A stretch of 48,978 nucleotides of DNA, filler included, from Jimgerdemannia flammicorona (lineage: Eukaryota), in assembly GCA_003990765.1 (NCBI GenBank). It is 2 parts of 2 records of this genome, joined end to end, with 100 filler letters (N's around TTAATTAATTAA, not from the genome) between each part and the next. Parts side by side here need not be neighbours in the genome. Positions count along the whole stretch, not along the records: positions 24,554 to 48,978 come from RBNJ01000975.1; 1 more part is not named here. One strand, written 5' to 3'. The notes beneath the pieces are model-generated. The model was given only the letters and a program-made list of their open reading frames with translations. It had not been told where the DNA came from and searched no databases. How positions within the stretch are numbered: position 1 is the first letter of the stretch; every line of letters starts with the position of its first letter. The translations under genes and the position numbers were made by a program. This document shows positions 28,603 through 48,898 of this stretch, one piece after another.

Positions 28603-29118
28603 ATGGGCAACATGTGTTCCTCAAGACTTCCGCACCGCGCACCTCTTGAAGTTAATACATCCTGCTCTATCCCTACGATGGAGGTGTCCGGAGTGTTCAT
28701 AGTGCGCTTCATCCAGATGTTCCACGACCAGGTCCTGCTGAAGAACCGAAAACACTGGGGTATCGTGGAGCTTGACTTGCGGTTCTCGAACTCAGAGCCG
28801 GAGAGGCTGGTGGCAGCCACGGCAAAAGGTCCCACGGTTAGTAGGAACCGAAAAGAAATGTTGACGAAGCTCAAATCCGTGGAGCGAAGTGCTTGCGACC
28901 GGCTGAACTGGGCGACCTTCTGGAACTTCGTCGAAGAGCACTTTGATCAGACGGAGGAAGAGTTCGAAAGATTCAAACTGGAGCTCATGACAAAGGTAAA
29001 TAGGGGCCGGCTCAGTGTCGACCACATTATTACAGAGGCAAATCCTTCGGTGTACTGGCAGTCGAAGGACCCCGACATGCGCTTGATTCGTTTTCAGCTC
29101 CATTTTAAACCAATTTAG
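28603..29118 (+). CDS. Unknown 'MGN' family protein, copy 1 (intact, 171 aa, MGNMCSS)
   Basis: Intronless ORF paralogous to seven other loci. Conserved blocks: GVFIVRFIQM.HD, LDLRF.NSEPERLVA, NW.TFW.FVEE.FDQTEEEFE.FK and KDPDMRLIRFQLHF. Confidence 0.8.
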   Translation: MGNMCSSRLPHRAPLEVNTSCSIPTMEVSGVFIVRFIQMFHDQVLLKNRKHWGIVELDLRFSNSEPERLVAATAKGPTVSRNRKEMLTKLKSVERSACDRLNWATFWNFVEEHFDQTEEEFERFKLELMTKVNRGRLSVDHIITEANPSVYWQSKDPDMRLIRFQLHFKPI

Positions 29119-29597
29119 AGAATGAGTTACCTATGAGTACAAATAACATTATGAACAATACATACTACTCTAATATGCCTATGCCTACACTGTTCGACCA
29201 TACCGCACTGATATCTTCCATTTAGGTATTCTAGTGTTTCCTGTAGTGAATGCATGGTGCTCAGTATAGGATCGAGAATTACCTTTTGTATTTATTTATG
29301 ACATTTCAATATGCAACTCGTATGAATTAATTCCGGTATAGCGAGACCAAGAACAGTTGGAACTTTTATGGTCTGAGTTATGTGAATAAACTGATATGTT
29401 GTATCGAAAGCTTTATATGTGCATTCTGATATATTTAAAATTCAAGCAGATTCCAGTTTTCATCCTATCGGTACGGACCCAAGGAATCTTATATGTTATC
29501 ACCATGTAAGTTGGTATTTCAGAGGTTGGGGTTACACGGTATACTGGAATCCGTACTGGATGATTCAGTTCTGTTGCAGATCCCAAACATCGAAATC

Positions 29598-30255
29598 TCT
29601 AAAGCGTCGATAGTCACAACACGGCTGTACCTGAATTATTTTTAGATTGGTCACACATTTCTCCATTTGGCTGAGCTCTGAGCATCGCCACGTAATTTGG
29701 CTGAGTTATGTGTCTTCCATTTCTAAGTCAAATATATAAAGATAATATAGAAACATCTCAACACATCTAAAAAATCTTATACATATAACAATTGCACTGA
29801 TAATCCACTACTCAAAATGGCCCAAGAGTTTTGAAGTTGCTTTTTCAACATAAGAAATTTCTGCTGAAGAATTCAAAGAACAATGGCCACATATATCAAA
29901 TATATAATCTATCTGGAGCTCTGGTGAACCAAAGAATTGTGACAGCTGGACTACTTATAATTGCTATATGAAAAAGTATACAAAATCAAGTACACGAAAA
30001 GAAGGCATCCCAGATGACAAGTGTCGCAAGACACAAATTCGAGAGCCAGACTAGTGTTCTGTGAAAACCAAAGTCACTCACTTGGCTACAACATCAATGA
30101 TTCGAATCGAATGTATTTGAACATACACATAAGTGATATTTAAAACGTTCAGATGTAATTTAGATAACCCCTTATACGGGCTCAGCCAAATGGAGAAATG
30201 TGTGACCAATCTAAAAATAATTCAGGTACCGAGTTGTGACTATCGACGCTTTAGA
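29598..30255 (+). mobile_element. Non-autonomous DNA transposon with ~80-bp TIRs and a Mutator-like internal remnant
   Basis: 29598-29678 (TCTAAAGCGTCGATAGTCACAAC..TTTGGCTGAG) is the near-perfect reverse complement of ~30178-30255. The interior translates, with stops, to YNCYMKKYTKSSTRKEGIPDDKCRKTQIREPD*CSVKTKV..HTH. The element is absent from the paralogous sites near 36425 and 43820. Confidence 0.85.
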
Positions 30256-31020
30256 CAACCCCAATCTTCAGTTCGGGTTGAAACTTTTTGATCCAGGCAC
30301 ATAACATGACATGTGATTGTGCATATATCTATACACATCATCATCAAAACCATCACCCTGAGGATCAGTTGGAATTCGGATAAAGGATAGGAAGGGAAAT
30401 TCAGGTGCAGGTAGAGCTCTGACCCAGAAAATTACAAAAACCAACCCTGCAGCACTTTGAACCCGAAAAATGGCCGACCTGACGTTGTACCCAGTGACTC
30501 AACCCGTCGATTTGACATTTAAATCAAACTTTGAAATTCTGTTACTCAACTAAAACATGTCAAATTTTGATGTACTTTAGCTTGTTAGATTTGCCTTATC
30601 TAGGCCAATCCAGCGAAACAAAGATCATAAAATTTGGACATGTAACAGAATTTCAAAATTTGATTTAAATTCGGAATTTAAATCAAAATTTTGAATTTCT
30701 GTTACTTGACGAAAAAGTGTCCAATTTTTGATGTATTTCAGCTTGTTGTATTCGCCTCATTTAGGAAAATCCAGCACAACAAAGATCATAAAATTTGGAC
30801 ATGTTTTCGTCGAGTAACAAAATTTCAAAGTTTGGTTTAAATTTCAACAATGACATATCATCAGCATAAAGCTCCAAATGATCTGATTGATGGATCTTAT
30901 GATATTGAATCATGAAGTTCACCTGCCAGGACTCTGCCCCCGATGAACGTGAGATCATGTATTTGATCATATGTCATGATCATGTGCCTGGACCAAACCG
31001 AACCGAAGATTTCGGGTTGG
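30256..31020. mobile_element. Nested foldback/MITE-like structure
   Basis: Outer imperfect inverted repeats CAACCCCAATCTTCAGTTCGG..TCCAGGCACAT / ATGTGCCTGGA..CCGAACCGAAGATTTCGGGTTG enclose two tandem ~160-175-bp palindromic units (30515-30671 and 30674-30846). Confidence 0.75.
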
Positions 31021-31949
31021 GATCAAAGATTTCAAAGATTTCGGGTTGGACCAAACCCAATCCATGCGGAACAATCATGCATTCCCCTGCGCCAGAAGCA
31101 ACTCAGTTAGCGCCGATTTCAGATAGAAGTAAAACTTTATTTCTTAAATATTTAGTTCAGACCTTAAATTTGCCTTCGCAAGTATCTTTTTGGAGCAATA
31201 TTCTTCTTATTTAAATGACCTAGGAGAGGCTTGTGGTTTCAGCACTCGTTCACCCAGCGACTGAGCTCGTCGCATCTCAGCAATTAAGCGTATACTACGC
31301 CAGTAACTTAGCAATTAGTCGTTAGCAATTTCTCATTTCAATCTGTTTGCACATCCTTCCCACCCATCCCTTAGGGTTATGTACAATAAACGGTTCCTTC
31401 GCTTTAACGCGAATGGCGGGTCTTGGAAGCGTATGCTTCCATAAGCCAAATACATCTGCTTCATTCACATTTACATTTATTTCACGTACATTTATTTACA
31501 TTTTACGGTTTACGTCTTCGTATTTTATGCAAAGGACACTTTGTAGTAGCTTATACAACCTCAATATGCTGTCCATTTTGATGCATACTGGACCAGTAAA
31601 TCGGAGAGGGTTTTTTGCCCGATAAAAGCAAGCGAAAGTAATATTCCTTAAAGTAATATTCCTTAAAGCGATATTATTCTGTGCTGGGATCCTCTTGTAA
31701 ATTGTATGTTTGTCATGTTGAATGCAAGTATGGGAGGGAAATATGTGCTGAAGTTATGTTTGGGAGAATAAATATGCATTCTTGAAAATCTATCTTTCTC
31801 CCAATTATAACAGGTGTGCTATCTGCTAGATTCCAACCTTCATCGGCATGACGGTGCTGCTCTAATATAAAATATTGTAGATATAAATAAGGTCATTCGT
31901 GAGTATTTCACTAATTTTATCTTGTATTCATTTCGAGTTTCCTGTAGGA

Positions 31950-47460: not shown

Positions 47461-47731
47461 GATTAGGAGGGTGTCAGGCCACGACCATGGCCAACTCTAT
47501 AAAGTGATGTAATCCGACCTCATATATGTCTTATGTTTTTGCCCCTATTTCCAAAGTGTCTTAAAGGAGGAGGCTGAATTCATAGAACACCGTGCATAAG
47601 CCAACAATCCCTTCGTTCGTTTTATTTGCTCGAAGCCATCGACTACGCTCTCATGTCACCTGAAAATTCTTAAATAAACTATGTCTGAAATAAAATCCCA
47701 ACGCCTTCCTCTAACCCAGCCTACTCACAAC

Positions 47732-48085
47732 ATGGTAACATATTCTCTCGTCGGCATCGGTCCCGCGCACCTCCTGAAGATGAGATTTCCCGTCTTAGCC
47801 CTATGATGGAGGCGTACGGTGTGTTCATAGTGCGCTTCATCCAGATGATCCACGACGGCATCCTGGTGAAGAACCGAAGACGCTGGAGAAGCTTCGTGGT
47901 GCTGGGCTTGCGGTTCCCGAACTCAGAACCGGAGAGACTGGTGGCGGTCACGTCAAAGGGTCCCGCGGACAGTAAGAATAGAAAGGAGCTGTTGAACTCA
48001 AATCTGCGGAGCGTAGCGCCTGCGAACGCTTGGACTGGGTAACCTTCTGGGATCTCGCGACAAGGGTAACACATCATTACAAAAG
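47732..48085 (+). pseudogene. MGN family copy 7 (1-nt deletion after ATG, further deletions, 3' truncated)
   Basis: CACAACATGGTAAC versus CACAACATGGGTAAC in copies 6 and 8. The core MMEAYGVFIVRFIQMIHD..NSEPERLVA is retained. Confidence 0.85.
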
Positions 48086-48391
48086 CGAATGTCAATTTCA
48101 AAACACGAAGCCGAAAATTACCCACGACCGCCAGTTGACGTGACCCACGCTATAAGGCAACTTCATGGTTGTCTTATCTTCATTGGCTCTTATTTCTAAA
48201 GGGTTGTTATAACGATTAAGGGAGGAGGCGGAACTTGAAGGACATCGTACATAAAAGGCCACAATCCTTTTATTTCCTCGAAGCCGTCGACTACCTTTGA
48301 AAAGACCCATGTCAAGGTTTCACAGCCAACATAAGTCTGAAACAAAACTACAAAACTCCAACGCCTCCCTCTAACCCAGCCTACTCACAAC

Positions 48392-48898
48392 ATGGGTAAC
48401 AAATTCTCTCGTCGTCGGTCCCGCGCACTTCCTGAAGATGAAATGGCCCATCTTAGCCCTATGGCGGAGACGTATGGTGTGTTTATAGTGCGCTTCATCC
48501 AGATGATCCACGACCGCATCCTGGTGAAGAACCGAAAACGCTGGGGCAGCTTTGTGGTGCTTGACTTGCGATTCCCGAACTCAGAACCGGGGAGATTGGT
48601 GGCGGTCACGGCCAAGAGCCTCGCGGATAGCAAGAATCGCGAAAAGATGTTGAAGAAGCTCAAAACCGCGGAGCGCAGCGCCTGCGAGCGCGTGAACTGG
48701 GTAACCTTCTGGGACTTCGTCGAGGAGCGCTTTGACCAGACGGAGGAGGAGTTCGAAAAATTCAAAGTGGAGCTCGTGACAAGGGTAAATAGGGGTCGGC
48801 TCAGTGTGGATTACATCATTACGAAAGGGAATCCCTCGGTAGAGGACCCCGGGATGCGCTTGATTCGCTTTCAGCTCCATTTTCACGAATTCGAATAG
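48392..48898 (+). CDS. MGN family copy 8 (intact, 168 aa, MGNKFSRRRSR)
   Basis: Full-length ORF with a small in-frame deletion near the C-terminus. Confidence 0.8.
   Translation: MGNKFSRRRSRALPEDEMAHLSPMAETYGVFIVRFIQMIHDRILVKNRKRWGSFVVLDLRFPNSEPGRLVAVTAKSLADSKNREKMLKKLKTAERSACERVNWVTFWDFVEERFDQTEEEFEKFKVELVTRVNRGRLSVDYIITKGNPSVEDPGMRLIRFQLHFHEFE

Follow-up and report, generated by a model that had tools for sequence, protein, structure and literature searches.

A 48,978-base stretch of Jimgerdemannia flammicorona DNA (assembly GCA_003990765.1; this whole stretch is referred to below as the window) contains eight copies of a gene encoding a basic, soluble-type protein of approximately 20 kDa. 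It is highly likely that the copies constitute a real, selected, and tandemly amplified orphan gene family. Based on an N-terminal motif that is retained in every copy with a start codon, we propose, with a probability of roughly 0.55, that the product is a lipid-anchored peripheral membrane protein of the cytosolic face, the constrained core of which would act as a binding or adaptor module.

The copies, here designated A to H, were located by tblastn searches of the window with the three intact proteins (A, D, and H). All eight loci lie on the + strand between 28603 and 48895, with E-values ranging from approximately 1e-9 (the short B fragment) to 1e-119, and none was found elsewhere in the window (Table 1). 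They fall into two subgroups, A-E and F-H. The original prediction, made by inspection of the sequence, had described eight same-strand copies, three of them intact (28603, 41310, and 48392) and five broken by independent lesions, and the searches and alignments confirm this inventory. The core motifs that it quoted are also found, with small variants such as LDLRFSNSEP in A, while its description of the N-terminus as Pro-rich was overstated, there being two to five Pro among the first 26 residues. The window ends 80 bases past copy H, and the array may continue beyond it.

Each broken copy carries a different set of lesions. Past 35105, copy B continues into a segment copied from upstream of the family's genes (35121-35205 is 89.5% identical to 40818-40898). 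Copy C has an in-frame deletion of 66 nucleotides (nt), removing 22 core codons, together with a TGG to TAG stop. Copy E has lost its ATG and carries a 20-nt deletion, a TGG to TGA stop, and additional deletions of 9 nt and 12 nt. Copy F, which is otherwise 87% identical to H at the DNA level, is frameshifted by a 10-nt deletion after approximately codon 90. In copy G, the Gly2 codon has lost 1 nt, a 4-nt deletion is also present, and unrelated sequence takes the place of the 3' half. The intact copy H itself differs from A and D by an in-frame 12-nt deletion. Because alignment of the DNA, together with translations of B, C, E, F, and G, revealed no lesion common to two of them, the description of the lesions as independent is correct. 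E and G are each short of one G in the same GGG run, yet they belong to different subgroups.

Table 1. Positions of the family copies, of the duplicated region around them, and of the recognised genes in the window (aa, amino acids; ORF, open reading frame).
Feature	Position	Strand	Description
Copy A	28603-29118	+	Intact single-exon ORF, 171 aa, start M-G-N-M-C-S
Copy B	34965-35105	+	5' fragment, ~47 codons, start M-G-N-V-C-S
Copy C	35443-35892	+	Pseudogene or truncated form; ORF ends 35832
Copy D	41310-41831	+	Intact ORF, 173 aa, start M-G-N-I-C-S
Copy E	~42566-43050	+	Pseudogene, start codon gone
Copy F	45650-46164	+	Recent pseudogene, start M-G-N-K-F-S
Copy G	~47732-48110	+	Pseudogene, retains G-N-I-F-S
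Copy H	48392-48898	+	Intact ORF, 168 aa, start M-G-N-K-F-S
Duplicated region	25723-48978		~6.5-kb units, from self-comparison
5' flank of A	27923-28570	+	Near-identical to 5' flank of D, 40603-41277
BTB	1503-2468		Pfam
A_deamin (adenosine-deaminase, editase)	4041-4655	-	Pfam, 68 bits
F-box	10351-11259		Pfam
Ribosomal L22/L17e	12785-13375		Pfam
Isy1	20017-21386		Pfam
Nitronate monooxygenase (NMO)	23279-24404		Pfam

Comparison of the intact copies confirms that the + frame is truly coding and that the array represents a real protein-coding family. When the codon-aligned sequences of A, D, and H are read in all six frames, the + frame is the sole frame with no stop in all three copies, and its ratio of non-synonymous to synonymous divergence (dN/dS) is the lowest of the six in every pair (0.35, 0.31, and 0.18). 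These values are not near 1, and synonymous change exceeds non-synonymous change in each pair (Fisher p = 2e-4, 9e-8, and 3e-14). The antisense frame sharing wobble positions gives 0.29-0.45 with one to three stops per intact copy, and the remaining frames give 0.89-1.87. The pattern of insertions and deletions (indels) points the same way. Five noncoding flank alignments contain 41 indel events per 213 substitutions (0.19 per substitution). Of these events, 35 have lengths not divisible by three, and lengths of 9-33 nt are common. Pairs of intact coding sequences, which differ by 59, 108, and 102 substitutions, contain only 2, 4, and 2 indel events, all of 3 nt or 12 nt; by our arithmetic, approximately 10-18 frame-breaking indels per pair would be expected at the flank rate. 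The GC content of third codon positions is 0.65-0.70 in the family ORFs and 0.58-0.84 in neighbouring housekeeping exons, while the GC content of the array intergenic DNA is 0.42. Copies A, D, and H are thus under purifying selection. The broken copies still show a dN/dS of 0.27-0.49 against their nearest intact relatives, so their inactivation is recent compared with their divergence.

Antisense ORFs of 118-165 aa overlap the copies at 28566-28946, 35421-35801, 41273-41737, 45760-46257, and 47721-48077 (all - strand). As genes, the antisense ORFs (99-165 aa) were rejected, since the antisense frames contain 1-13 stops per frame per intact copy and the dN/dS of the wobble-sharing frame exceeds that of the sense frame. 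They look like by-products of codon bias in the sense frame.

The N-terminus carries the argument for membrane attachment. All six copies with a start codon (A, B, C, D, F, and H) begin with M-G-N-[MVIK]-[CF]-S. This motif is held while its surroundings drift, since it is retained in six of six copies whereas codons 1-26 apart from the motif, in effect the next ~20 codons, show a dN/dS of 0.56-1.43; the value for the core is 0.15-0.28. Substrates of N-myristoyltransferase follow a PROSITE-type pattern in which Gly follows the initiator Met, position 3 is small or uncharged, and position 6 is Ser, Thr, Ala, Gly, Cys, or Asn. All six sequences conform to it. The M-G-x-x-x-S start reported in the original prediction is therefore present, in the narrower form M-G-N-x-x-S, although in copy D an upstream ATG may offer an alternative start.

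In PMC5170614, myristate alone is described as not enough for stable membrane binding, a nearby palmitoyl-Cys or a polybasic cluster also being needed. Candidates for both types of second signal are found here. Cys5 is present in all four subgroup-1 N-termini (A, B, C, and D). In subgroup 2 (F, H, and the broken G), position 5 is Phe, and a stretch of Arg, Lys, and His comes directly after it. In copy H, R-R-R-S-R follows M-G-N-K-F-S, giving five basic residues in the first 11. That one family displays both second-signal types is the strongest reason, if an indirect one, to regard the motif as functional.

We propose that the initiator Met is removed and that Gly2 is then N-myristoylated by the N-myristoyltransferase of the cell. 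Retention at the cytosolic side of a membrane would then depend on a second signal, which in subgroup 1 (A, B, C, and D) would be S-palmitoylation of Cys5 and in subgroup 2 (F, G, and H) the polybasic run. A variable linker of approximately 20 residues would join this anchor to the constrained core of approximately 145 residues, most likely a membrane-proximal binding or adaptor module and not an enzyme of known class. The arrangement resembles the anchors of Src and Fyn, which share the Met-Gly start and Ser6; the nearby Cys is Fyn-like and the basic cluster Src-like, and both kinds are found within this one family. The resemblance is confined to the logic of an anchor of approximately 12 residues, as the core contains no kinase, SH, or other known domain.

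The strongest alternative, though an unlikely one, is that the copies encode an orphan protein that is not lipid-anchored and is instead soluble in the cytosol or nucleus, with M-G-N-x-x-S being incidental or serving, for example, in N-terminal stability. The shortness of the motif is compatible with this, as is the composition of the protein, which is basic (pI 8.9-9.7), rich in Lys, Arg, Asp, and Glu, and hydrophilic (grand average of hydropathy -0.45 to -0.53). Against it, positions 1, 2, 3, and 6 are invariant in all six start-bearing copies beside nearly neutral codons, and each subgroup carries one classical second signal directly after the motif. The absence of any hydrophobic segment also counts towards a lipid anchor; the highest 19-residue Kyte-Doolittle mean is 1.08-1.37. 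By hydropathy, and without a dedicated predictor, neither a signal peptide nor the features of a Cys-rich secreted effector were found: the first 26 residues are polar and the protein has one to three Cys. The earlier statement that no signal peptide is present thus holds.

Structure prediction and a Foldseek search, suggested alongside the original prediction, were carried out and yielded no fold match. Two AlphaFold runs gave predicted local distance difference test (pLDDT) scores of 42.8 and 42.1, both unreliable, and the models, which at low confidence begin with two or three strands, agree only on two N-terminal strands, a helical middle of approximately 55 residues, and one or more C-terminal strands. 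The best Foldseek match to the low-confidence model had an E-value of 2.5. A language-model comparison placed copy D near Atlas clusters of C2-type domains (RPGR1_C and DUF1005) at a cosine of 0.87-0.90, and a membrane-binding module of this type would suit a lipid-anchored protein. However, D shares 110-132 of 256 features with these clusters, compared with approximately 170 for true family members. The lead was rejected, as copy H gave no usable match and Pfam C2 models were unmatched at E <= 1. The long helical middle of the low-confidence models is moreover at odds with an all-beta sandwich.

A bolder version of the anchored protein, which we consider quite unlikely, would give the core a previously undescribed fold and place a dual-signal anchored family, varying in copy number and linker between individuals, in conspecific recognition, defence, or drive-like conflict. 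The switch of second signal would then send paralogues to different membranes. About as unlikely is the functional reading, building on the original prediction, of a membrane-tethered family acting in non-self recognition, defence, or host interaction (immunity, allorecognition, or symbiosis), with conflict driving its turnover. Tandem birth and death, a dN/dS of up to 1.4 in the N-terminal linker, and a lineage-restricted distribution would all fit such a role, and in Neurospora lineage-specific genes are reported to cluster with incompatibility genes (PMC10684091). Yet the core is under plain purifying selection with no diversifying signal, and tandem turnover is also seen in families with none of these roles. 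Pfam was run on 55 other ORFs of the window, 27 of them in the array region (25.7-45.1 kb). No HET, NACHT/NB-ARC, or HeLo domain, as would mark a fungal allorecognition or NLR locus, was found in the three intact copies or in the 55 ORFs, no HET, NLR, lectin, or toxin domain lies nearby, and the protein has no signal peptide. A role in immunity, allorecognition, or symbiosis is therefore unsupported beyond the generic sign of tandem turnover.

The array grew in place. The duplicated region starts at approximately 25723, upstream of copy A. Its first ~6.5-kb unit (25723-32243) matches 32244-39522 with approximately 92-94% identity over aligned bases, and the front part of the unit recurs at 39068-42016. 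Short local duplications link D to E (1.26 kb), G to H (0.66 kb), and F to H (2.74 kb). The family was amplified by tandem segmental duplication in units of ~6.5 kb together with short local duplications, and is undergoing birth and death, with three copies kept under purifying selection and five eroding, mainly by deletions of 4-66 nt and nonsense changes. The turnover by duplication and decay that had been predicted is borne out by the eight loci, the repeat units, and the broken copies.

At least one recent exchange may also have homogenised the 5' flanks of A and D. Over approximately 650 nt, these flanks differ by 4 substitutions per 623 aligned bases and by 7 indels of 2-21 nt, whereas in the adjoining coding sequences 59 of 513 positions are different, and divergence is greater still in the 3' flanks. 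The coding tree pairs A with C (dS 0.11) and places D farther away (0.23-0.27), while the 5' flank instead pairs A with D. Because the two groupings conflict, we read the flank as a putative tract of recent gene conversion or exchange, ending approximately 33 nt upstream of the ATG. An assembly artefact in this repeat-rich, gapped region could also account for the identity. The ratio of indels to substitutions in the A and D flanks is unusually high, which suggests either a deletion-prone mutation spectrum at the locus or assembly noise. A 10-mer that is duplicated upstream of A and D shows no enrichment: it has 6 matches, and 7 of 100 shuffles reach 6.

It is highly improbable that the family is the cargo or a part of a selfish or mobile unit, such as the ORF of a non-autonomous element or a drive-type gene. 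Rapid turnover and the repeat content of the array, which includes an element of ~230-380 nt in both orientations (25725-25957 compared with 46874-46676), minisatellites, and long homopolymers, are what such a unit might leave. Against this, all eight copies have one orientation and lie in tandem units with collinear flanks, the ORF is under purifying selection, and none of the 27 other array-region ORFs reaches a Pfam cut-off. No transposase, reverse transcriptase, integrase, HET, NACHT, or NLR domain was detected by Pfam in the 55 window ORFs, and in the libraries searched the family itself matched neither a transposon ORF nor a well-characterised domain.

The limits of the gene are indicated by comparison of the two subgroups. 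Between A-E and F-H, the DNA similarity detected by blastn is confined to the ORF (28635-29106 matches 48421-48883, and 41342-41833 matches 48421-48900); in the alignment it fades within approximately 20 nt upstream of the ATG and ends at the stop codon. In copies A, C, F, and H, no in-frame ATG separates the M-G-N start from the nearest upstream stop in that frame, which in A lies 22 codons before the start. A, C, and E share a deletion of the ancestral stop region and now end a few codons away at a new TAG. Immediate use of a new stop after loss of the ancestral one is what would be expected where a coding sequence terminates. Copy D is unique in having an extra in-frame ATG at 41211, 33 codons upstream. 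Translation of 41211-41309 (+) would add 33 residues, including a hydrophobic stretch, but this segment is probably 5' untranslated region, since A has homologous sequence there without an ATG. Least likely of all is that the ORF forms a single exon within a larger gene, or that a different gene model applies, such as one with an upstream coding exon spliced on, making the M-G-N start internal. Although D has its upstream ATG and other genes of the window contain introns (Isy1 and NMO are split across ORFs), the limits of similarity, the upstream stops, and the replaced stops all argue for a complete ORF, and a profile search without length limit found no longer relative.

No relative of the family was detected in any library searched. 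None of the three intact copies matches a Pfam family at E <= 1, and NCBIfam and PHROGs gave only noise (E 0.04-0.16). A word-indexed search of 5.8 billion clusters returned 32 candidates, none with E <= 0.001. A hidden Markov model (HMM) built from six family sequences had no match among 1,835,955,588 protein representatives, with no limit on length, and a sequence profile search of the PDB returned only two rows, at E 0.23-0.26. Pattern matches numbered 155 and 319 in two metagenome scans based on different conserved peptides, 74 in viral contigs, and 13 in prokaryote genomes; none was confirmed. Four 8-residue strings from the family do not occur in the literature searched. The HMM and Pfam results bear out the earlier view that no domain can be assigned. 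Its description of the family as lineage-specific is weakened by poor database coverage of the lineage. The family can safely be described as restricted to a narrow clade.

Several points weigh against the proposal of a selected, lipid-anchored orphan family as set out above. Myristoylation motifs are short and common, and use of the upstream ATG in copy D would bury Gly2. The single-exon model is supported, short of proof, by the unbroken ORF and by the limits of similarity. The fold of the core and its role as an adaptor are guesses, given the unreliable models. Copy number may be inexact in a repeat-rich, gapped assembly with N runs at 24454-24553 just before the array. Finally, close relatives of the organism seem to be under-represented in the libraries, so that orphan status is weaker than it appears; ordinary genes of the window also match poorly, the best database match to an NMO exon having 76% identity and coming from an unannotated assembly, and a neighbouring ORF of 430 aa having no match at all.

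Clusters of lineage-specific (orphan) genes are reported for Neurospora (PMC10684091 and PMC11628664). The array resembles such fungal clusters in that short genes without detectable homologues are being duplicated and lost at one locus. It differs from them in that all members are paralogues of one family, in the purifying selection on that family, and in its acylation-type motif, and it differs from the Neurospora type in that no HET-domain gene is present in the window. The family is genuine and undescribed, and adds one more example of a well-known phenomenon, the tandem cluster of lineage-specific genes. Fungal genomes often contain orphan clusters, and the family is of value for being a well-defined candidate, not for being a surprise. 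If the proposal is correct, the array would offer a clean natural example of an orphan family demonstrably under selection, in which paralogues switch between the two partners classically paired with N-myristoylation (nearby Cys and basic cluster), and would be a handy system for studying how young genes gain membrane targeting. The array also illustrates how deletion-biased decay, and apparently promoter-level gene conversion, shape tandem arrays.

The window looks fungal. The genes recognised by Pfam are of ordinary eukaryotic kinds and all lie within 1-24.4 kb, several of them split by introns (Table 1); the A_deamin ORF is probably an exon of a tRNA-specific adenosine deaminase. An ORF of 430 codons between the Isy1 and NMO genes (21575-22864, +) has no Pfam domain and no word-indexed match, and may be another poorly conserved gene. 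Two further Pfam rows score below threshold (18.2 and 16.9 bits, the cut-offs being 27 and 26) and are noise, and no tRNA or Rfam family was found in the window. Two N runs of 44 bases each (24454-24497 and 24510-24553) lie between the NMO gene and the duplicated region. Within the array, the ~230-380-nt element occurs four times with 70-82% identity, at 25725-25957, 32729-32946, and 39070-39307 on the + strand and at 46874-46659 on the - strand. It contains no detected protein domain and probably represents part of a non-autonomous repeat. Perfect homopolymers are also found in the array's intergenic DNA, with runs of 85 T (33287-33371), 46 T (43380-43425), 41 A (26074-26114), and 26 A (39409-39434), and minisatellites of 21-28 nt with a shared unit lie at 27556-27642 and 39880-40313.

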